Source: an uncultured Erysipelotrichales bacterium
Lineage (GTDB): Bacteria > Bacillota_I > Bacilli_A > Erysipelotrichales > CAZWEF01
DNA length: 15,727 nucleotides
NCBI GenBank assembly: GCA_964632125.1
Contig: CAZWEF010000040.1
Coordinates: 1 to 15,727, forward strand
Direction: 5' to 3'
Shown: positions 5,585 to 15,727 of the stretch, in pieces
Layout of the letters: each line of letters opens with the position of its first letter
How positions within the stretch are numbered: the stretch's first letter is position 1
The notes under the pieces: model-generated
What the model saw: only the letters and a program-made list of their open reading frames with translations
Database searches by the model: none
Told to the model about the DNA's origin: nothing
Position numbers and translations under genes: made by a program

Positions 5585-6454
5585 CTAAATCGCTTTAAAT
5601 TCTGATGCTTCTTTCTTTAAATAATCACTAAATGAATCAATCCATTCATGAGCATAAGGACTTAAATAACGATTCTTATGAACAATAAAATAAAATGGTT
5701 TATGCAAATCAATGTCTAATTCATGAATCATAAACATGTCATGAGGAATGAGTTTTTTTGGTAAAATAGAAATACCTATCGCTTCTTTAACAAGTTCAAT
5801 GATGGCTTGAGAATTAGCACTTTCTATGATGGGTTGGTAAAAAAGATGTTGGTTTTTAAAATGATAATCAATGATGGCTCTAGTACCGCTTGAAGTATCG
5901 CGAAGAATTAAAGGATATGAAACTAAATCATGAAAACTAAGTTGCTTATTTAAGTGACTTTTTTTTGATGAAAAGACTACCAATTCTTCACTTGCAATCC
6001 CTTGTACAAGGAGATCTTTATCATGGATAGGTGTTTCAATGAAACCAAAATCTAAAGATCCATTCATTACTTGATGAATGATGTTTTGAGAATTATCAAT
6101 ATGTGTCATTAATTGATGATGATGATGCTTTAAATAGGTGGGTAAATAAGCAGTCCCAATGGTTAAACTAAATCCTATTTTTAGACTATGGGCTTGATGC
6201 TCTTCTTTTAAAACATTTTTGGTTGTTTCAAGCAATGTCATGATACTTAATAGTTGTTCATATAAATAATTACCTTGACTAGTTAGTTCAAGCTTCTTTT
6301 TCATGCGATGAAATAATTTGACATCGTAATAGTTCTCTAATTCTTTAATGGCAAGTGATACAGATGGCTGTGCAATCATCAATTGACTTGCAGCTTTGGT
6401 CATACTTTGTTGTTTCACAACCTCTATAAAGATATGAAAATGTCTTAGTGTCAT
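5585..6454 (-). CDS. LysR-family transcriptional regulator, divergent from the chromate transporter pair
   Basis: N-terminal HTH MTLRHFHIFIEVVKQQSMTKAASQLMIAQPSVSLAIKELE is the LysR signature. A GGAGGA RBS 5 nt upstream supports the start at the second ATG (6454) rather than the ORF-track start at 6466. About 289 aa with a C-terminal co-inducer-binding domain. Confidence 0.9.
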   Translation of the reverse strand: MTLRHFHIFIEVVKQQSMTKAASQLMIAQPSVSLAIKELENYYDVKLFHRMKKKLELTSQGNYLYEQLLSIMTLLETTKNVLKEEHQAHSLKIGFSLTIGTAYLPTYLKHHHHQLMTHIDNSQNIIHQVMNGSLDFGFIETPIHDKDLLVQGIASEELVVFSSKKSHLNKQLSFHDLVSYPLILRDTSSGTRAIIDYHFKNQHLFYQPIIESANSQAIIELVKEAIGISILPKKLIPHDMFMIHELDIDLHKPFYFIVHKNRYLSPYAHEWIDSFSDYLKKEASEFKAI

Positions 6455-6549
6455 GTTATCCTCCATAATTAATTTATTATAATGTATATACTAAATATAG
6501 TATTTTACTTATATATTGTCAAGATGTATACTATAAGAGAGGTGAATCA

Positions 6550-7119
6550 ATGAAACCATTTAAACATCATTTAAAACTATTTAAAGAAACACTTTTAATC
6601 AGTGCTTTTACCTTTGGTGGTGGGTATGTCATTGTCCCATTACTTAAAAAAAGATTTGTGGATGAACTTCATTGGATTGAAGAAGAAGAAATGATTGATT
6701 TGGTGGCCATCGCACAATCATCCCCAGGTCCTTTAGCCATCAATGCATCAATCATGATTGGCTATAAATTGAGTGGGTTAAAAGGCGCTCTTGTAGCAAC
6801 ACTTGGTACATCTTTACCACCACTCGTCATCATTTCGCTCATTTCTATGTTCTATGATTTTTTTCAAAGCAATAAGATTATTTCAACCATGATGATTGGC
6901 ATGCAAGCAGCAGTAGCCGCTATTATATTGAATGTTTGTCTCACGATGTTCCAACAAGTAACAAAAACCAATACCCTAAGAAATATCGTATTATTTATCA
7001 TTGCTTTTGTTGCGAGTTATGTTTTTAAAATCAATGTGATGCTAGTCATCATTGTCTTTGCATTGGTTGGTTTGATGTTGATGTTTTATGAAAGGGGGAA
7101 GAAGCATGATCTATCTTGA
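6550..7119 (+). CDS. chrA: Chromate-transporter (CHR) family short-chain subunit 1
   Basis: 189 aa, multi-TM. Carries the CHR signature FTFGGGYVIVPLL. It is paired with a second half-size CHR gene, as in Bacillus ywrB/ywrA-type short-chain CHR (SCHR) pairs. Confidence 0.85.
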   Translation: MKPFKHHLKLFKETLLISAFTFGGGYVIVPLLKKRFVDELHWIEEEEMIDLVAIAQSSPGPLAINASIMIGYKLSGLKGALVATLGTSLPPLVIISLISMFYDFFQSNKIISTMMIGMQAAVAAIILNVCLTMFQQVTKTNTLRNIVLFIIAFVASYVFKINVMLVIIVFALVGLMLMFYERGKKHDLS

Positions 7120-7663
7120 ACTCTTTATTAGCTTCTTTAAAGTGGGTTTATTTAGTATTGGTGGTGGGTACGCATCATTACCACTCATCCAAAATGAAGT
7201 GGTGGTCAATCATGCTTGGCTATCACTTAAAACATTTACTGATGTCATTACCATTGCAGAAATGACCCCAGGACCAATAGCACTTAATGCAGCAACTTTT
7301 GTTGGAACCAAAGTTGCAGGAACATCAGGTTCAATTGTCGCAACAATAGGTGTTATTTTACCATCCTTTTTAATCTTATCTTTACTTAGTTATTTATACT
7401 TCAAATATCAAAATTTAGATGCCATTCAAGGGATGCTACAGGGCATAAGGCCAACAGTTGTAGCACTTATTTTTGGTGCAGGTTTATCCATTCTCATGCT
7501 TTCACTCTTTGGCCATTCAAAAAACTTGGTGCTAAGTGAATTAAACTATCTTCATGTTGTATTTGTTGCTTTAGCATTGTTTTTAGTAAGAAAGATGAAA
7601 CTAAGTCCTATAATTGTGATGTTATGCATAGGTTTGTTAAATGTTTTAATGACGATGATTTAA
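7106..7663 (+). CDS. chrA: Chromate-transporter (CHR) family short-chain subunit 2
   Basis: CHR signature FSIGGGYASLPLI. The AAGGGGG RBS supports the start at 7106 (MIYLELF...). It overlaps the upstream partner by 14 nt, indicating translational coupling. Confidence 0.85.
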   Translation: MIYLELFISFFKVGLFSIGGGYASLPLIQNEVVVNHAWLSLKTFTDVITIAEMTPGPIALNAATFVGTKVAGTSGSIVATIGVILPSFLILSLLSYLYFKYQNLDAIQGMLQGIRPTVVALIFGAGLSILMLSLFGHSKNLVLSELNYLHVVFVALALFLVRKMKLSPIIVMLCIGLLNVLMTMI

Positions 7664-7930
7664 TCAATTGATCGTGCTAAAAAGTCTTCTTATTAACATA
7701 GAAGCGATGCTTGTTCAACATCTTTTTATAAACAAATGACGTATAAACACGATGACCATGATCACATTTATTCATTTGAATGCCAATTTCTATATGAAGT
7801 TGTCCTATCAAAAGACCATTATTTGGTAGAAAAAAGGTTTATAGAGGACCACTTCTTGAATGTACTGAAACAAACATGACATTGTTTATGATTTATAAAC
7901 TATGTATAATAAGGATGTGGGGTGATTCTA

Positions 7931-9162
7931 TGAGTGACTATCAAGAACAAATCAAAAAGTTTGATAAAGTAAGAGACTACATACATTCTTTTTACTTATA
8001 TGGCTATAACACACGAGGACAATTCAATGTTAGGAGTACAAGAAGCTACGATAATGAAAAAAGAAGAATAGAAAGTTATTTAGCTGAATACATAACCTAT
8101 ACTAAAGATGAACGAGGTAAACAAATAGCGATTGAAGCAGATTGTGCTACTTTAGATACGAATCCACTTTATCGCGCTTTTAAAGCGAAAAGCTTTACTA
8201 AAAATGATATATCATTGCATTTTTATATCTTTGATTTACTCAAAGAATACCAAGCTTTAAGTGCACCTGAACTCATGATGAAAATGGATGAACATTATAC
8301 AAACTATTTTAATCAACCTATGCTACTAGATTTATCAACTATTAGAAAAAAACTTAATGAGTATGAGTCACTTGGTCTTCTATCAAGTAACAAACAAGGA
8401 AAAAAAGTTGTTTATTCAATCACCAAAGATACGATTGATTTAAATACTGTTCATGACAGCTTATGTTTCTTTTCAGAAGTTTCACCACTAGGTGTTGTTG
8501 GTAACTACTTACTTGATAAGATTGGTAAACAAAATGATGTATTCCGATTTAAACACCACTATATTATGCATGCATTAGAAAGTGAAGTTGTATTAAGTTT
8601 GGTTCAAGCAATGAACCAGAAAAAGAAAATTCGAATTGATGTTCGAAAAAACAGTCAAACAAGTGACATATATGGTGTTCCAATTAAGATATTGATTAGT
8701 GTTCAAACAGGTAGACGCTATTTGTGTTTGTATTACAATAGCCGATTCAGAAACATACGACTCGATCATGTAAAACACGTGACACTCATGAATGAAGTGA
8801 GTCATTATGAAGCCATTCATCTTCGCTATCAGCAATTAGAAGCATTTACTTGGGGTAGTTCATATGGTGATCAAAAAAAGCTTGAACATTTGTCTATTCG
8901 ACTTGCGATTTCTTTTGAAGAGCGCTATATCATCAATCGTATTGAAAATGAAGGAAGACATGGTGTTTTAACCTTTGTTGAAGAAGGTGTGTATCAATAC
9001 GACATTGATGTTTATGATACGATGGAAATGTTGCCTTGGATTCGCACATTCATTGGTAGAATCATTCAACTAGAAGGAACCAACACCCATGTAATCAGTT
9101 TGTTTTATGATGATTTAAATCGAATGTTGGCGATGTATGGCGGTGATCAAGATGTTGTTTAG
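7931..9162 (+). CDS. WYL-domain transcriptional regulator (N-terminal extension, wHTH, WYL, C-terminal extension), first of a tandem pair
   Basis: The RBS GGGGTGA-4nt-ATG supports the start MSDYQEQ.... A winged-HTH-like segment LSAPELMMKMDE...LSTIRKKLNEYESLGLLSSNKQGKKVVYSI resembles HTH_11/DeoR. The WYL-domain pattern KKIRIDVRKNSQTSDIYGVPIKILISVQTGRRYLCLYYNSRFRNIRLDHVKHVTL matches the consensus (i.i.Y....r.v.P..l....WYL......r.FRldRI) with RYL in place of WYL. Confidence 0.7.
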
Positions 9163-10057
9163 TGAAGTTTACAGTGTCTATTACAAGGTGATGGAACACT
9201 TGATTGAGTTATCTCAAACACAACAATTAAATGACCAAATCATGAAAGAAGTGATTGAGAATAATGCTTTTCAAGAAAGTTTTTGGTTTATTTCGAGTTC
9301 AATTAAACAAGAAGAATGGGCACTGATTACAAAAGACTTTCAAACACCACTGCTTCATCAACCCCATCTACCACTAACTGACATCCAGCGTGCTTTTTTA
9401 AAATCAATGTTTTTAGATCAACGTATACAACTATTTATTGATATGCCTAGTTCACTCATAGATGTAGAGCCACTCTATAATCCAAACATGTTTTATACAA
9501 TGGATGTATTTAAAAATGGGGATCCTTACAGTGACCCTCAATACATTGCACACTTTAAAATTATTTTAGAAGCAGTAAAACATTCTAAAGCAATCAAAAT
9601 GATTTATACAAGTGGTAAAGACAAGCGAATCGAAGGTATCTATTTTCCTGATAAGATTGAGTATTCAGCTAAAGAAGATCGTTTTCGTATTTTATGTAAA
9701 AGGCAACACAAAGAATATATCTTCAATATTGCAAGGATTGAATCATTAGTCATAACAAAAGATGTTTATAAACATACTACTTTAATTAAACGTCAACAAG
9801 CATGGATTGAACTTGAGTTGAAAGATTATCGTAATGCATTAGAACGTTTACTCACATCATTTGCTAACTACAAAAAAGAAACAAAACAAATAGATTCACT
9901 AACCTATCGTATTTTGATTACGTATTTTCAATCGGATGAAACCGAACTCTTGATTCGTATTCTATCATTTGGTCCAATGATTAAAGTCTTGGGTCCTGAC
10001 ACGTTTATTCATCAACTAAAAAATCGAATTCATAAACAAATAAAGTTGTGTAACTAA
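9152..10057 (+). CDS. Second WYL-domain protein, overlapping the first by 11 nt; PafC-like partner without a clearly recognisable HTH
   Basis: WYL-domain pattern AIKMIYTSGKDKRIEGIYFPDKIEYSAKEDRFRILCKRQHKEYIFNIARIESLVI matches the consensus (Y....R..P......Y......R.F...RI). RBS GGTGA-5nt-ATG sits at 9152; the ORF-track start at 9137 has no RBS. The stop is embedded in a terminator stem. Confidence 0.6.
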   Translation: MLFSEVYSVYYKVMEHLIELSQTQQLNDQIMKEVIENNAFQESFWFISSSIKQEEWALITKDFQTPLLHQPHLPLTDIQRAFLKSMFLDQRIQLFIDMPSSLIDVEPLYNPNMFYTMDVFKNGDPYSDPQYIAHFKIILEAVKHSKAIKMIYTSGKDKRIEGIYFPDKIEYSAKEDRFRILCKRQHKEYIFNIARIESLVITKDVYKHTTLIKRQQAWIELELKDYRNALERLLTSFANYKKETKQIDSLTYRILITYFQSDETELLIRILSFGPMIKVLGPDTFIHQLKNRIHKQIKLCN

Positions 10058-10077
10058 ATCAGTTCGCAACTTTTTTT
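10042..10077 (+). terminator. Rho-independent terminator closing the WYL gene pair
   Basis: AAAGTTGTG...CGCAACTTT forms a 9-bp stem (one G.U pair) and is followed by TTTTTTT at 10071-10077. Confidence 0.75.
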
Positions 10078-10094
10078 CCACGATAAATCATGTG

Positions 10095-10215
10095 CTATAG
10101 GCTATGATGTAGACACAAGGAAGTTTTGCTTGATGCAAATGTGGTGCCAAAGGTATACCAAATGGTATTCCATCATCCTTGTTTCGCAGGTTCGAGTCCT
10201 GCATGAACCTTTTAA
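10095..10215 (+). ncRNA. Candidate tRNA-like / Y-RNA-like small RNA with a canonical tRNA T-arm; boundaries approximate
   Basis: Positions 10186-10202 read GCAGG-TTCGAGT-CCTGC, a perfect 5-bp stem closing the 7-nt T-loop consensus (T-psi-C-R-A-N-N) found in bona fide tRNAs. Upstream hairpins are TTTGC-TTGAT-GCAAA (10125-10139) and ATACC-AAAT-GGTAT (10155-10168). A long-range pairing joins ATGATG (10104-10109) with CATCAT (10171-10176). The alternative outer helix AGGTTC...GAACCT plus TTTT (10188-10214) can act as an intrinsic 3' end. No complete cloverleaf (acceptor or anticodon arm) could be folded by eye. Confidence 0.4.
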
Positions 10216-10410
10216 GTTCAATTTGGTAAATAAAATAGAAAGTAAAAACAAATGATTCAGACTTGTTCAAATTAAATGATGACCTTGTCCTTGATGGATA
10301 CCGCTCTTAGACTACTTATGCCAAAGTTTACTTCCGAATAAGTACGATAATAACTTAAATCAATGCCGTCATCGTTTAATGAATCATTTAAAACAAAGGA
10401 GGAAATGAAC

Positions 10411-11505
10411 ATGAAAAAAATGATAAAAGAAAATCAAAAAGGATTACTATATCGATATGGAAAACTAACCAAAGTCTTAAACCCTGGTCTTCATAACTAC
10501 TACTTAAGTGGCTACACAGTTGAAGTCATGAATGTTTTTGAACCGTTTAGAAGTGAAACTTTACCTGTAGAAATTGCCATGAACCATGAATTACTAAAAA
10601 GTGAATTAGAATGTATTCAAGTATCGGATGAAATGGTTGTCCTTCATTATATCAATGATCAATTTGCTGCATGTTTAACTAAAGGAACTTATGCATTCTT
10701 TAAAGCTTATCAAAACCATCAATTTCTTACAATATCAATACGAGATAACTATGTAAGTGATGACATGCCAAAACATGTATTTGAATCCATTCCACATGAT
10801 TTGTATCGTCATGAAATCATTGCTGAGTATCAAAAGGGTATTGTAATCATCAATGGTAAAATTGAACGCGTATTAGATAAAGGTCACCATTATTTTTGGC
10901 TTAACCATAATGACTTGGAAATAGTCATCGTTGATACGCGTCTAAAACAAATGGAACTTGTTGGACAAGAACTATTAACACTTGATAAAGTGGCACTTCG
11001 TATTAACTTTGTCTGTCGTTATAAAATTATTGACTACGTTAAACTAGTGACAGAGGTAGAGGACTTTGAAAACATGATGCATGTTACACTGCAACTGGCA
11101 TTAAGAGCGTATGTTGGTAAGTATCGCTTGGATGAAATACTTGAAAACAAAGAAGGTATTGCTTTATATGCTTTTGAAAAACTAAAAGAAAAAGAAGCAT
11201 CATTATATATGCATGTTGAAGATGCTGGAGTAAAAGACATTATCTTACCAGGTGAAATAAGAGAAATCATGAACACTGTATTGATTGCAGAAAAGAAAGC
11301 ACAAGCGAATGTGATCACAAGACGTGAAGAAGTTGCATCAACAAGAAGTTTACTTAATACCGCGAAGTTAATGGATGAAAACAAAACACTGTATAAATTA
11401 AAAGAACTTGAATACGTAGAACGTATTTGTCAAAATGTTAGAGAAATCAATGTTGGAACCCAAAATGATATTCTTACGACAATGACTTCATTATTAAAGG
11501 GGTGA
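10411..11505 (+). CDS. SPFH/band-7 (stomatin/prohibitin-like) domain protein, apparently cytoplasmic (no N-terminal TM helix)
   Basis: The AAGGAGG RBS lies 8 nt before the ATG at 10411 and supports MKKMIKENQKGLLYRYGKLTKVLNPGLHNYYL.... This is the SPFH N-terminal signature (v..ge.gvv.rfGk.....pGlhf..P). A C-terminal coiled-coil-like segment reads ...IAEKKAQANVITRREEVASTRSLLNTAKLMDE. The ORF-track start at 10363 is rejected. Confidence 0.7.
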   Translation: MKKMIKENQKGLLYRYGKLTKVLNPGLHNYYLSGYTVEVMNVFEPFRSETLPVEIAMNHELLKSELECIQVSDEMVVLHYINDQFAACLTKGTYAFFKAYQNHQFLTISIRDNYVSDDMPKHVFESIPHDLYRHEIIAEYQKGIVIINGKIERVLDKGHHYFWLNHNDLEIVIVDTRLKQMELVGQELLTLDKVALRINFVCRYKIIDYVKLVTEVEDFENMMHVTLQLALRAYVGKYRLDEILENKEGIALYAFEKLKEKEASLYMHVEDAGVKDIILPGEIREIMNTVLIAEKKAQANVITRREEVASTRSLLNTAKLMDENKTLYKLKELEYVERICQNVREINVGTQNDILTTMTSLLKG

Positions 11506-11509
11506 AACA

Positions 11510-12280
11510 ATGAAGGAACGTATCCTTGAAGCATTAAAAGAAGTTGAACAAACATATGATGTCAAAGTACTGTTCGCAGTAGAATCAGGAAGCAGAGCTT
11601 GGGGCTTTGCTTCACCTGATAGTGATTATGATGTGCGCTTTGTGTATGTTCATAAATTAAATCATTATCTAAGAGTCGACAAAACTAGAGATGTCATAGA
11701 GCTTCCTATTGCTGATGATTTAGACATCAATGGTTGGGATTTAAAGAAGGCAATGAAACTTATGAGTACATCAAATCCAACCTTATACGAATGGTTAGAC
11801 TCACCAATTGTTTACATGTCTACACCTGAGTTCGAGGTATTAAAGCATAAGCGTTTAGACTTTTATCAACAAAAACCTGGTCTGTACCATTACTTAAATT
11901 ACGCTTATAATAACTATAAACATAATCAAAAACAGGACATGATTAAAGTAAAGCAATACTTTTATGTCTTAAGACCAATCTTAGCATGTCAATGGATCCT
12001 ATCTAATCAAACGCCACCTCCTGTACCATTTGAGCAACTTGTTGAAACAATGTTAGATGAAGATATGAAAGATGTAGTGCGACAATTGATTGTCCTTAAA
12101 ACAAGTAGTATAGAATCGCAATGGATTAAAAGACTTGAGCATATAGATCAGTACATAAATAATCAGTTAACAACATTAAAACAAATAGTTAATGATTTAA
12201 ATTACGTGGAAGTCAACCACAAAGAAGCAATAAATCAATTGTTTCTAGAACTTTTACAAAGGAGAGATGAAGATGATTGA
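11510..12280 (+). CDS. Pol-beta-superfamily minimal nucleotidyltransferase (COG3541-like, the RtcB-associated NTase family)
   Basis: N-terminal motif VLFAVESGSRAWGFASPDSDYDVRFVY is the hG[GS]x9-13DhD nucleotidyltransferase signature. A C-terminal helical domain follows. The gene starts 5 nt after the SPFH stop and overlaps rtcB by 14 nt. Confidence 0.8.
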   Translation: MKERILEALKEVEQTYDVKVLFAVESGSRAWGFASPDSDYDVRFVYVHKLNHYLRVDKTRDVIELPIADDLDINGWDLKKAMKLMSTSNPTLYEWLDSPIVYMSTPEFEVLKHKRLDFYQQKPGLYHYLNYAYNNYKHNQKQDMIKVKQYFYVLRPILACQWILSNQTPPPVPFEQLVETMLDEDMKDVVRQLIVLKTSSIESQWIKRLEHIDQYINNQLTTLKQIVNDLNYVEVNHKEAINQLFLELLQRRDEDD

Positions 12281-13493
12281 AATAAAAGGGAAGTATGCAA
12301 CTGCTCAAATATACTCAAATTTAGTTGATGAACTAGCAATCAAACAACTTCAATTGTTGATTGATCAACCACTATCAAAGGATGCTAAAATTAGAATTAT
12401 GCCAGATGTTCATGCAGGTGCGGGATGCGTGATTGGGTTTACTGCAAACATTCAGGATGTTGTTATTCCAAACATTGTGGGCGTTGATATAGGGTGTGGT
12501 ATGTTGACAATCATGCTCGGACAAAAGAGAATTGATTTAGATAAGCTAGATGCGATTATTCACCAATACATACCAAGTGGGAGAGATGTACATGTGCATC
12601 CATTAGCGAAAGTTGATTTATTATCAAATATTCGATGCTTACCGTATCTAAAGAATGAAAAACGATTTAGTCAAAGTATGGGAACACTTGGTGGGGGTAA
12701 TCATTTCATTGAAGTAAATGTTGATGATGAAGGCAATCATTATTTGGTTATCCATACAGGAAGTCGAAATTTAGGGAAACAAGTAGCTGATTACTATCAA
12801 CATTTAGCAATTGATCAACTAAGTGGTAAAAGTAATTACAAACAAGACTTAAACAATCTCATCGCCGGTTATAAACAACAAAATAAAGAACATTTATTGG
12901 AACAAGCCATTCAAGATTTAAAAGCAGAATATGAGCTTAAAATGGTGAAACACCCAGAGCTTAGCTACTTAACTGGTCAAGGTAAAGCCGATTATTTAAA
13001 TGATATGGGGCTCTGTCAGCAATTTGCAACCCGTAATCGTGAAAAGATTGCTTCAATCATACTTAACCATCTGTTTGAAAAATCTTTGCATGACTTTGAT
13101 TGTTTTGAAACTGTGCATAATTATATTGATTTGACGACAAACATGATACGAAAGGGCGCTGTATCAGCTCAACTAAACGAAATGATCTTGATTCCGATGA
13201 ACATGAGAGACGGAAGTTTACTATGTCTTGGTAAAGGCAATGAGGATTGGAATTGTTCTGCACCTCATGGAGCAGGTAGATTGTATAGTAGGATACAAGC
13301 AAAGAAACAGTTTACATTAGATGAGTATGCTTTGTCAATGAAAGGCATTTATTCGTCAACAATCAACAATCAAACACTAGATGAATGCCCAATGGCTTAT
13401 AAAGATATGAAAGATATTGTCACTAGAATTGAACCAACCGCGACCATTCTTAAAGTGCTAAAACCAATCTATAATTTCAAAGCATCTGACTAA
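12267..13493 (+). CDS. rtcB: RNA 3'-phosphate/2',3'-cyclic phosphate to 5'-OH RNA ligase RtcB
   Basis: 408 aa with all RtcB hallmark metal/GMP-binding motifs in order: MPDVHAGAGCVIGFT, GVDIGCGM, GGGNHFIEV, IHTGSRNLG, ETVHNYID, CSAPHGAGR (the GMP-histidine motif). The start overlaps the NTase stop, indicating translational coupling. Confidence 0.9.
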   Translation: MKMIEIKGKYATAQIYSNLVDELAIKQLQLLIDQPLSKDAKIRIMPDVHAGAGCVIGFTANIQDVVIPNIVGVDIGCGMLTIMLGQKRIDLDKLDAIIHQYIPSGRDVHVHPLAKVDLLSNIRCLPYLKNEKRFSQSMGTLGGGNHFIEVNVDDEGNHYLVIHTGSRNLGKQVADYYQHLAIDQLSGKSNYKQDLNNLIAGYKQQNKEHLLEQAIQDLKAEYELKMVKHPELSYLTGQGKADYLNDMGLCQQFATRNREKIASIILNHLFEKSLHDFDCFETVHNYIDLTTNMIRKGAVSAQLNEMILIPMNMRDGSLLCLGKGNEDWNCSAPHGAGRLYSRIQAKKQFTLDEYALSMKGIYSSTINNQTLDECPMAYKDMKDIVTRIEPTATILKVLKPIYNFKASD

Positions 13494-13514
13494 ACAGTGT
13501 GAACCACTGTTTTT
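13493..13514. terminator. Bidirectional terminator hairpin shared by the convergent rtcB and nudix genes
   Basis: AACAGTG-TGAAC-CACTGTT is a 7-bp stem, followed by TTT on the + strand. It overlaps both stop codons. Confidence 0.6.
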
Positions 13515-14037
13515 AGTCATCATGTTTGTGACAACCATAAAACTTCCTACTATCAAAAAAAAGCTGTATTAGACTTTTATGGTATGGGATAAAGGTACCA
13601 GCATCAATCATTGCAATGATTGTTTCAACACTTGCCCATTTAACTTGTTGAACTTCTTCGTATTGTAATTGTAACTGTTCAATATTAACATCATGTTCAA
13701 TTAAATAAATATCATCAAATCCAACATCAAAATTAATGGTTAAGTGAGGACGAACTTGCTTCAATTCTATCTCCAATCCGATTTCTTCACTTATTTCTCT
13801 TTGAATAGCTTGTTGACTCGTTTCCCCTTCAATCGCGCTACCACCAACTGATATATCCCACATGTTTGGCCAACCTTTTTTGAATGGTTGTCTTTGTTGA
13901 ATCAACATATCATTATTTGAGTTAAACACACAAGCATGAACAACTAAGTGGTATGCGTCTTTATCAAATGGTTGACCGCTCATCATTGTTTTCCCACTTT
14001 TTGTCCGATCATTGTTATAAACATCCCAAAGTTCCAT
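13513..14037 (-). CDS. Nudix hydrolase
   Basis: Nudix box GGSAIEGETSQQAIQREISEEIGLEI matches GX5EX7REUXEEXGU. 174 aa. AAGGA RBS. Confidence 0.85.
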   Translation of the reverse strand: MELWDVYNNDRTKSGKTMMSGQPFDKDAYHLVVHACVFNSNNDMLIQQRQPFKKGWPNMWDISVGGSAIEGETSQQAIQREISEEIGLEIELKQVRPHLTINFDVGFDDIYLIEHDVNIEQLQLQYEEVQQVKWASVETIIAMIDAGTFIPYHKSLIQLFFDSRKFYGCHKHDD

Positions 14038-14313: not shown

Positions 14314-15727
14314 ATGTTTAACAAGCAAAAAATTTGTTTACTAAGCGTAGTTTCGAGCTTGTTTATAATCAATTCATTTCAAACAATAAACGCTGTTAGG
14401 ATCGAAAAAAACACACCACACCACACAGTTGGCACTTTATTTACGCCAAAGGCGATTGTCAATACGACGATTGGTGGTATTGTTTATGAATTAGATGATA
14501 CAACATTAACTGCAAAAACGGTTGCCTACTCAGGCGTGTCTAGAGACATTGTTATTCCATCTTCTGTTCGTTACAATAATGTTGATTACAGTGTAAAAGA
14601 AGTTAGATTTTCAAGTTTCTATAACAAAAACTTAAGAACAGTTGTTGTGTCAGAAGGCATTACGACAATAGGAAATGATGCATTTGCTTTTAATGCATTA
14701 GAAAAAATAACACTCCCATCGACATTAACATCCATTGGGAACTATGCATTTGCGATTAATCAGTTAAAAAGTATAGAAATTCCAGAAAACCTTGTAAAAA
14801 TAGGTGACTATTCTTTTGCAGCCAATAAATTAGAAAACGTAGTCATCAAAAGTAACTTGTCAATGGTTGGTAAAAATGTGTTTTCAAATAGCCCACTTAC
14901 ACAGATTTTTTTATCGGACATTTCAACTGCACAAAGTCTCATCAATGCATTAAATGCAAATGCGATGCAAGGGATTACTGTTGCGACTACCTCTTTGTAT
15001 GCACTAAATAATGTATCCATTGATTATATAGAAGGTACGCTTGATTACTATGATTTGGCATATAACCAAACTCAAGAACTTGTTGTAAACACATATATTC
15101 CAGAAATTAAACGGTATAGTCAAGATGAAGATACGTGGTTGGATTTAATCGATAATCCGATTAGCCTAACCAATCAAGACATTAAATGGATCAATCAAAG
15201 TAACGAAATTGTTGGCACTGGGTATCGTTACATCGTAGTTGAATCTGGCGTTTACCATGCATTAGTTAATGATGCCGTTAAATTAAATGATATCACAGTT
15301 CAAATAAAAGCAAATGAATATACGGTTATATTTGATGCACAAGGGGGAATACCAACCCCACCAAATCAAACAGTTGTGGTTGGAGAGAGAATTGTTGAAC
15401 CAATCACACCAGAAAGGCTTGGGTATACATTAAAAAGCTGGAATACCACAAAAGATGGCAGTGGGGAGAATTGGGATTTCAATACCAATACAATGCCAGC
15501 AAATGATGTGACGTTATATGCCCAGTGGCATATTAATCAATATCATTTGTATTATGATTTGAATGGGGGAGAAGGAACTGATCCACAAACCCAAGACATT
15601 GAGTACGGTGCACTAATAAGTGAACCTAATACACCACAAAGAATTGGATATACATTTAGTGGTTGGAATACCACAAAAGATGGCAGTGGGGAGAATTGGG
15701 ATTTCAATACCAATACAATGCCAGCAA
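14314..15727 (+). CDS. Partial (3'-truncated by the window) secreted cell-surface protein with a signal peptide, BspA-type leucine-rich repeats and Listeria-Bacteroides repeat domains
   Basis: The N-terminus MFNKQKICLLSVVSSLFIINSFQTINA is signal-peptide-like. About 22-aa LRRs run in tandem (ITTIGNDAFAFNALEKITLPSTLTSIGNYAFAINQLKSIEIPENLVKIGDYSFAANKLENVVI). At least two roughly 75-aa repeats have the Listeria-Bacteroides pattern (Y.V.FD..GG......V..G..I.EP..P.R.GYTF.GWNT..DGSG..WDF.T..MPANDVTLYAQW). The frame is open to the window end. It is absent from the ORF track because no stop codon falls in the window. Confidence 0.8.
   Translation, partial: MFNKQKICLLSVVSSLFIINSFQTINAVRIEKNTPHHTVGTLFTPKAIVNTTIGGIVYELDDTTLTAKTVAYSGVSRDIVIPSSVRYNNVDYSVKEVRFSSFYNKNLRTVVVSEGITTIGNDAFAFNALEKITLPSTLTSIGNYAFAINQLKSIEIPENLVKIGDYSFAANKLENVVIKSNLSMVGKNVFSNSPLTQIFLSDISTAQSLINALNANAMQGITVATTSLYALNNVSIDYIEGTLDYYDLAYNQTQELVVNTYIPEIKRYSQDEDTWLDLIDNPISLTNQDIKWINQSNEIVGTGYRYIVVESGVYHALVNDAVKLNDITVQIKANEYTVIFDAQGGIPTPPNQTVVVGERIVEPITPERLGYTLKSWNTTKDGSGENWDFNTNTMPANDVTLYAQWHINQYHLYYDLNGGEGTDPQTQDIEYGALISEPNTPQRIGYTFSGWNTTKDGSGENWDFNTNTMPA
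15439..15502 (+). repeat. 64-nt perfect direct repeat, copy 1 (intragenic, 225-nt period, one 75-aa Listeria-Bacteroides repeat unit)
   Basis: TGGAATACCACAAAAGATGGCAGTGGGGAGAATTGGGATTTCAATACCAATACAATGCCAGCAA is identical at 15439-15502 and 15664-15727, including the wobble positions. Confidence 0.9.
15664..15727 (+). repeat. 64-nt perfect direct repeat, copy 2 (runs to the window edge and may continue beyond it)
   Basis: Identical to 15439-15502. The flanking repeat-unit sequence has diverged at both nucleotide and protein level. Confidence 0.9.

Follow-up and report, generated by a model that had tools for sequence, protein, structure and literature searches.

What do two overlapping genes for WYL-domain proteins do beside an RNA-repair operon? 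The question is raised by a 15,727-nucleotide (nt) stretch of DNA, here called the window (G+C about 32%), from contig CAZWEF010000040.1 of an uncultured Erysipelotrichales bacterium. The two genes, which we call A and B, encode members of the WYL-WCX regulator superfamily that behave as an obligate pair. Next to them stands a conserved motif, held at a fixed distance from a promoter that faces genes for RNA repair, among them the RNA ligase RtcB. We consider it probable, if well short of assured, that A and B assemble 1:1 into a heteromeric WYL transcription factor, a ligand-activated activator in the style of PafBC and DriD that is dedicated to this adjacent operon. All functional statements about A and B made here are computational.

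7930-9162, + strand: gene A, 410 amino acids (aa), start from family alignment
9152-10057, + strand: gene B, 301 aa, start from family alignment

The longest open reading frames (ORFs), 7876-9162 for A and 9137-10057 for B, lie on the same strand, and both the ORF finder and the public annotation take their starts from them (7876 and 9137). Alignments of 33 homologues for each protein open instead at MS(D/E)Y for A and at MLFSE for B, and we therefore take ATG 7930 and ATG 9152 to be the real starts. The initial annotation had A begin at 7931, which is one base off and out of frame, so that its translation yields 26 stop codons. The 11-nt overlap that it described (9152-9162) is recovered with the family-based starts. 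A Shine-Dalgarno-like GGGGTGA precedes gene A at 7919-7925.

Two WYL-WCX proteins of unequal architecture

Both proteins carry a WYL domain, as the initial annotation had proposed from sequence pattern. The PADLOC WYL profile PDLC01652 matches residues 212-382 of A and 130-295 of B (E 4e-9 each). Pfam applied to A or B singly gave no WYL match and only a faint WCX match in B, and single-protein sequence searches of the PDB with either protein returned only noise. Family-level comparison is more informative. Among 34 aligned members per family tested against Pfam, WYL is found in 31 of the A family and 17 of the B family, and WCX in 25 of the B family. The family profiles match PafB, PafC, fused PafBC and BrxR among solved structures, with the PafC and PafBC matches located in the C-terminal region.

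The AlphaFold models lead to the same proteins, with Foldseek returning DriD, PafBC, CapW and BrxR at E 1e-8 to 7e-10. The best match of A (mean predicted local distance difference test score, pLDDT, 73) is DriD at 7e-10, followed by PafBC at 1e-9 and then CapW and BrxR; that of B (mean pLDDT 84.8) is DriD at 1e-8, followed by PafBC, CapW and BrxR. These fold matches, together with the PADLOC hit, place the second ORF among WYL proteins, and in A they extend across the C-terminal half of the model, where the WCX domain lies. Compared directly by hhalign, the two WYL domains prove to be related (probability 93.6%, E 2e-7), and both are basic, with median net charges of +4 in A and +5 in B. Homologues in a large protein collection number 3571 for A and 597 for B.

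7930-8205, + strand: A N-terminal extension, residues 1-92 (about 90 aa), conserved, basic, no fold match
8200-8424, + strand: A winged helix-turn-helix, residues about 91-165 (model, weak profile matches, Foldseek)
Residues about 170-217, + strand: A linker helices (AlphaFold model)
8563-9144, + strand: A WYL and WCX domains, residues about 212-405, with GRRYL at 261-265 (profile, model, Foldseek)

Protein A has the wHTH-WYL-WCX architecture (wHTH, winged helix-turn-helix) preceded by an extension. The modelled winged helix consists of helices at 91-107, 112-122 and 135-147 and a hairpin at 151-164. Weak ArsR-type matches cover residues 113-169, PaaX, Penicillinase_R and Cdc6_C matches occur in this region among A-family members, and Foldseek gives partial matches to ArsR and MecI family proteins. 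The C-terminal part divides into WYL (about 219-290) and WCX (about 300-405). The replacement of WYL by RYL noted earlier is correct (R263-Y264-L265) and is a family trait, with G261, R262 and Y264 invariant. An extension of roughly 120 aa had been proposed ahead of the winged helix; about 90 aa fits the profile matches and the model better. This extension is the best-conserved part of the family (29 of 92 positions invariant) and is basic (median net charge +4). It is modelled at low confidence, and its family profile found zero matches in the PDB and Pfam. It stands at the N-terminus of 515 representative proteins (E<=1e-3).

Protein B is as long as a typical WYL transcription factor, and the earlier impression that it shows no obvious helix-turn-helix is upheld: profile tests detect none, and residues 1-125 are modelled as four helices and a long proline-rich coil, with no wing. 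This N-terminal region is strongly acidic (net charge -9; median -8). Profile comparison of its approximately 125 aa with the extension, helix-turn-helix and linker of A revealed no resemblance, and the region may be either a degenerate helix-turn-helix or a linker bundle. At the WYL position B has FRI, where the family consensus is FRL, a family-wide trait. The first protein had been singled out as the atypical member, yet the second is at least as atypical, given that it is without the winged helix that PafC has. In other words, profiles and models support the wHTH-WYL-WCX architecture for A and only WYL-WCX for B, and for this reason the pair is not a standard member of the class that has this architecture in each subunit (PafBC, DriD, CapW, BrxR and SiwR).

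An obligate pair, in places a single protein

To compare loci across genomes, we scanned about 186,000 species-representative genomes, one per species. The scan yielded 529 relatives of A, of which the best 80 were compared. The 80 loci come almost entirely from Bacillota and almost all from Clostridia (Oscillospiraceae, Ruminococcaceae, Anaerovoracaceae), with Dielma in addition; the carriers among the loci read are mostly gut and rumen Clostridia. B follows directly after A in 79 of the 80, and the sole exception is a contig that ends inside A. Adjacency this consistent is not due to chance.

9139-9146, + strand: Shine-Dalgarno sequence of gene B, GGCGGTGA, within the YGGD codons of the C-terminus of A

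The junction between the genes is conserved as well. Of 81 loci, 36 have an overlap of 11 nt and 39 have one of 14 nt (75 together), and the conserved YGGD codons of A encode the Shine-Dalgarno sequence of B, a GGAGGTGA-like element 5-6 nt before the start of B in nearly all loci.

Gene fusion is a classic sign of two proteins acting as one unit. We searched the N-terminal extension of A against 1.8 billion representative proteins and, among the best 150 matches, found seven A-B fusion proteins of 728-855 aa. In each, A is N-terminal, and full-length B follows after a linker of at most about 80 aa. Several of the linkers measure 45-80 aa, and these fusions are therefore not simple frameshift artefacts. 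We also rejected the idea that A and B are one gene broken by a frameshift: the two-frame overlap with its internal Shine-Dalgarno sequence is kept in those 75 of 81 loci, and the true fusions have linkers. The PafBC-like tandem arrangement suggested by the initial annotation thus stands in so far as A and B are an obligate pair, with translational coupling and seven fusions. They are not PafBC orthologues, because the similarity is weak and the phylum, gene context and site differ.

A conserved motif at fixed distance from a promoter

10062-10084, + strand: candidate operator and upstream promoter element (about -53 to -31), GTTCGCAAC-T7-CCACGAT
10103-10108, + strand: -10 box TATGAT of the target promoter, at a conserved fixed offset
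10038-10077, + strand: likely intrinsic terminator of the A-B transcript, hairpin and T7 run (-11.8 kcal/mol, z-score -4.7)

What links the pair to neighbouring genes is a 23-nt motif, GTTCGCAACTTTTTTTCCRYGAT, that occurs beside A-B once per locus in 74 of 82 loci (<=5 mismatches); its core 16-mer is present exactly once, with no mismatch, in 53 of 81. The window instance, GTTCGCAACTTTTTTTCCACGAT, lies 5 nt past the stop codon of B and is alone in the window, where chance would give 0.01 matches. The motif follows B on the + strand in 47 loci, and in 27 it occupies the - strand at 60-160 nt upstream of A. In both orientations it adjoins the pair and faces the RNA-repair genes. The earlier suggestion that the pair is positioned to control an RNA ligase operon is strengthened by this promoter-linked motif, which ties the pair to the RtcB operon whichever way the genes are arranged.

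A column-by-column profile of 72 motif instances shows that TTCGCAAC, T7 and CC are near-invariant and that offsets 1-22 are nearly invariant throughout. CC is followed by rTGAtt, which matches the -35 consensus at 3 of 6 positions, then by a low-information spacer and by TGn-TAtnaT at offsets 38-46. The TAtnaT -10 box keeps to offsets 41-46 relative to the motif, often with TGn upstream of it, and a CA at offset 52-53 is the likely transcription start position, which predicts a target start near 10115 in the window. The -10 is of sigma-70 type. TTCGCAAC sits at about -52 to -45, upstream of the -35, and is therefore not part of the core promoter. The motif as a whole is asymmetric and non-palindromic, with one block of about half-site size.

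In the window and in many same-strand loci, the 3' arm of the terminator is shared with the candidate operator, since an upstream GTTGCGA-like arm pairs with TCGCAAC. The GTTGCGA arm was not seen in the divergent loci read by eye, where the motif is unchanged, which indicates that its conservation does not come from termination alone.

The window holds no second copy of the motif, and nothing equivalent lies upstream of A in 7664-7929. Likewise, the region upstream of A in 31 same-strand loci contains no conserved motif, and in such loci the pair is therefore probably expressed independently of its target. The 10216-10410 region put forward earlier as a probe for electrophoretic mobility shift assays does not include the candidate operator (10062-10084). 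Just 5' of gene A, an 11-nt inverted repeat, ACATTGTTTAT / ATAAACTATGT (7879-7905), overlaps a -10-like TATAAT (7905-7910). We considered it as a part of the system and rejected it, as it is not kept upstream of A in other loci.

The proposed target operon and its leader RNA

10115-10410, + strand: regulated leader or noncoding RNA, with a T-arm at 10185-10202 and conserved blocks such as GGATACCG at 10296-10303
10411-11505, + strand: SPFH/Band-7 gene, first coding gene of the target operon (Pfam Band_7, E 4e-29)
11510-12280, + strand: RlaP nucleotidyltransferase gene (Pfam PF10127, E 6e-84)
12267-13493, + strand: RtcB RNA ligase gene (Pfam RtcB, E 1.6e-60)

On the + strand of the window, A and B are followed by about 350 nt of noncoding sequence and then by the genes for SPFH/Band-7, RlaP and RtcB. 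The SPFH ORF opens at ATG 10363; the likely start is ATG 10411, preceded by the ribosome-binding site GGAGG at 10398-10402, and homologues align from residue 16-17. RlaP adds 1-2 nucleotides onto damaged RNA 3' ends (PMC12776372). In the 65 loci with at least 4.5 kilobases (kb) of sequence downstream of the motif, RtcB is encoded in 52, RlaP in 23, and SPFH or DUF2828/DUF7788 in 56 (15 SPFH, 41 DUF2828/DUF7788). A canonical tRNA T-arm is present within 1.5 kb in 43 of the 65.

The leader RNA of the window is structured and conserved: 47 of 64 predicted pairs covary across 11 loci. Its T-arm is only a partial match to Rfam tRNA, and Rfam recognised no family, including any Y-RNA-type family, in the window leader and nine related loci. 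Full tRNA-like genes of the DUF2828-type loci score 41-63 bits against Rfam tRNA, above threshold, and some of those in loci scanned by ARAGORN have unusual anticodons (for example aat and aac). It had been suggested that the tRNA-like element relates to the ligand of the regulators. The element instead sits inside the regulated transcript, and we found no link to ligand sensing.

The composition of the operon varies among loci. The window has the order SPFH-RlaP-RtcB, and its RlaP-bearing, SPFH-type relatives (loci L001-L003 and L010) have SPFH-RtcB-RlaP. Where DUF2828/DUF7788 replaces SPFH, one or two full tRNA-like genes stand after the promoter and before DUF2828-RtcB. The DUF2828 protein, a possible relative of Ro60-type proteins, has no sequence match in the PDB.

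L012, 5357-5428, - strand: tRNA-like gene (Rfam tRNA)
L014, 6714-6786, - strand: tRNA-like gene (Rfam tRNA)
L027, 6379-6453 and 6606-6679, - strand: two tRNA-like genes (Rfam tRNA)
L033, 9224-9287 and 9331-9402, + strand: two tRNA-like genes (Rfam tRNA)

Proposed mechanism and alternatives

We propose that translational coupling would make A and B in fixed proportion, and that the two would associate through their WCX, WYL and linker regions. A would contact DNA with its winged helix and perhaps also with its basic N-terminal extension. B, its recognisable DNA-binding domain lost, would add a second WYL sensor and an acidic N-terminal region. The complex would recognise the asymmetric TTCGCAAC-T7-CC, next to a weak -35 and with constant spacing to the -10 (promoter about 10062-10108), and this promoter would drive the tRNA-like leader RNA, SPFH, RlaP and RtcB. 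Single-stranded nucleic acid in the basic WYL grooves may switch the complex, with RNA polymerase then helped to start as it is by PafBC and DriD. An asymmetric site with a single half-site-sized block fits a heterodimer with one DNA-reading subunit. A specific block, a fixed -10 distance and a poor -35 are also features of the sites used by the WYL activators DriD and PafBC, which leads us to favour a ligand-activated activator.

Several observations weigh against this proposal. No RtcB is seen downstream in 13 of the 65 loci, and a comparison drawn from the best 80 of 529 relatives may overstate uniformity. The winged-helix segment of A is net acidic (median -4), and the N-terminal part of A is modelled at low confidence. 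The G and A at -33 and -32 are invariant, which may reflect contact with sigma and not with the regulator. Some of the conservation of the motif could be at the RNA level, given that it doubles as the terminator 3' arm in same-strand loci. Finally, about half of the target promoters have an extended -10 (TGn). Extended -10 promoters can fire without an activator, and this feature fits repression equally.

For that last reason, a ligand-released repressor is still a serious alternative. The same complex would occupy the same operator but, like CapW or BrxR, would block RNA polymerase at about -53 to -31 until released by ligand. The motif overlaps the -35 region and the zone for an UP element, the many target promoters with an extended -10 could be active unaided, and WYL regulators beside stress or defence operons often repress (PMC11662680, PMC9503650). 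However, the WYL repressors characterised so far bind palindromes of about 20 base pairs (bp) as symmetric homodimers (PMC11662680), whereas the site here is asymmetric, and strict -10 distance combined with a poor -35 is a trait of DriD and PafBC activator promoters (PMC13004042, PMC8635444). On balance, we hold repression to be unlikely. It is harder still to credit that the transcription factor is a homodimer of A, and that B, not itself a DNA-bound subunit, is an accessory which either binds RNA or tunes the activity of A or of the repair enzymes. The lack of a detected DNA-binding domain in B would suit such a role, and WYL1, the accessory of Cas13d, is cited in one study as showing that WYL proteins can be RNA-binding accessories (cited in PMC11804915). 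Yet gene B is translationally coupled to A and always travels with it, even where the target operon is divergent, and the natural fusions impose 1:1 stoichiometry within one polypeptide. In addition, B keeps WCX, the domain that mediates heterodimer formation in PafBC (PMC11804915), and the operator is one half-site-sized block with no palindrome. We regard the accessory role as improbable.

It is also conceivable that the motif is not the site of the pair, and is a terminator or promoter element read by RNA polymerase or another factor while A and B regulate elsewhere. Its double use as a terminator arm in same-strand loci is compatible with this, and the T-tract and rTGAtt could be ordinary promoter parts. 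Nevertheless, TTCGCAAC is near-invariant over 72 instances and lies outside the core promoter, and the 27 divergent loci carry the motif unaltered, with no terminator arm in the ones inspected by eye. There is one copy per locus, always beside the pair, and the window contains one match against the 0.01 expected. We give this explanation very little weight.

What the ligand of the proposed activator might be is a separate question. To our knowledge, ssDNA (single-stranded DNA) is the ligand of every characterised WYL factor. PafBC and CapW respond to ssDNA (PMC11804915, PMC11662680), single-stranded RNA does not activate PafBC (PMC11804915), and CapW does not bind poly-U (PMC11662680). An RNA or nucleotide ligand, as the initial annotation suggested, would fit the RNA-repair context but would run against the PafBC and CapW precedent. 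One published proposal is that WYL and CARF regulators are alternative means of sensing RNA that ends in a cyclic phosphate, and that some of these regulators control RNA repair pathways (PMC9503650). DNA damage induces the Salmonella rtc operon (PMC7790460), which makes ssDNA no less likely than RNA as the ligand. Roughly, we would assign somewhat under half of our confidence to ssDNA, a little less to RNA fragments or ends, and a small remainder to anything else.

In PafB, arginines of the WYL groove and an aromatic residue have roles in binding the ssDNA ligand (PMC11804915). By alignment, A retains equivalents of PafB G193, R194, Y196 and R211 and not of R214, and B retains the R214 equivalent (R195), with N at the R211 position and FRL for WYL. 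Given that A keeps the Y196 and R211 equivalents and B that of R214, the two subunits may complement each other in building a single ligand site.

Going further, A-B could be the first WYL factor to sense damaged RNA, for example tRNA halves or ribotoxin-made ends, in place of ssDNA. It would then be an obligate heterodimer in which the DNA-binding domain of B has been traded for an acidic module and A has a new N-terminal domain, and a Clostridial counterpart of RtcR that co-regulates tRNA-like decoy or spare RNAs together with RtcB. This reading is tentative, and we doubt it more than we credit it.

Flanking genes

Upstream of A lie two half-size chromate-transporter genes (6550-7119 and 7088-7663) with a 32-nt overlap, and upstream of these is a divergent gene for a LysR-type regulator (5585-6466). 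Downstream, a NUDIX hydrolase gene on the - strand (13513-14037) converges on the end of rtcB. A surface-protein-like gene on the + strand (14314-15727) runs off the end of the contig. Its product has a signal-like N-terminus, leucine-rich-repeat-like units and repeats of the form GYT..GWNT..DGSG..WDF.T..MPA.DVTLYAQW, and these repeats appear in the DNA as a 107-nt direct repeat (15396-15502 / 15621-15727).

Comparison with known systems

PafBC offers the closest parallel in organization. Both systems consist of two paralogous WYL-WCX proteins encoded in tandem, and PafBC also occurs as single-chain fusions in some species (Arthrobacter). Cryo-electron microscopy has shown that only the helix-turn-helix of PafB reads DNA (PMC13004042, PMC8635444), and we propose a comparable asymmetric recognition, with one DNA-reading subunit, for A-B. 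Here, as reported for both DriD and PafBC (PMC13004042, PMC8635444), the target site keeps a constant spacing to the -10 in promoters with a poor -35. The differences are considerable, however. Profile similarity of A and B to PafB and PafC is weak (E 0.007-0.14), and A-B is found in Bacillota, not Actinobacteria, and without proteasome genes nearby. In PafC a winged helix is retained and contacts sigma region 4, whereas B has none, and A carries the extra extension of about 90 aa. The element at about -53 to -31 differs in sequence and position from the -26 element of PafBC. PafBC governs a DNA-repair regulon of about 150 genes, in contrast to the single adjacent RtcB operon targeted by A-B.

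DriD of Caulobacter is the best structural match for both A and B, and has a positionally conserved site beside the position expected for a -35, at a promoter whose -35 is suboptimal (PMC13004042). It differs as a symmetric wHTH-WYL-WCX homodimer that senses ssDNA and controls DNA-damage genes. CapW and BrxR share the WYL-WCX fold and, like A-B, are local regulators beside the operon that they control (CBASS and BREX, respectively). They are homodimeric repressors, released by ssDNA, that bind palindromes of about 20 bp as symmetric dimers (PMC11662680), whereas the A-B site is asymmetric and one partner is without a helix-turn-helix.

In function, the nearest counterpart is RtcR, the dedicated regulator beside the RtcB operon of Proteobacteria (rsr-yrlBA-rtcBA or rtcBA), which likewise includes a tRNA-like noncoding RNA (PMC7790460, PMC4201824). 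The full tRNA-like genes of the DUF2828-type loci recall the tRNA-like RNA YrlA of the Salmonella rsr-yrlBA-rtcBA operon (PMC4201824, PMC7790460). The protein architecture is different: Pfam and NCBIfam detect neither the CARF domain nor the AAA+ sigma-54 activator domain of RtcR in A or B, and the promoter looks like one of sigma-70 and not sigma-54 type. We know of no WYL regulator shown to respond to the RtcR signal, that is, tRNA halves with a 2',3'-cyclic phosphate end.

The general idea that WYL factors regulate some RNA-repair pathways has been published (PMC9503650). In the literature that we searched on WYL proteins with RtcB, RlaP or tRNA-like RNA, whose coverage excluded the RNA-repair survey of Burroughs and Aravind (2016), the A-B pair is undescribed, and we found no description of how RtcB operons are switched outside Proteobacteria. 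The locus offers a testable regulator, operator and promoter for this purpose, and its regulated transcript bears tRNA-like RNAs of interest for RNA repair. WYL regulators form a large, recently opened family in which PafBC was called the only reported heterodimeric protein in 2025 (PMC11804915). If our proposal is correct, A-B would add a second, independent family of two-subunit WYL regulators to that of mycobacterial PafBC, and would provide a natural comparison for the use of asymmetry. Learning whether the ligand is ssDNA or RNA could also broaden what is known of WYL sensor chemistry. By gene context and proposed role, A-B appears to be a functional analogue of RtcR built on an unrelated architecture.

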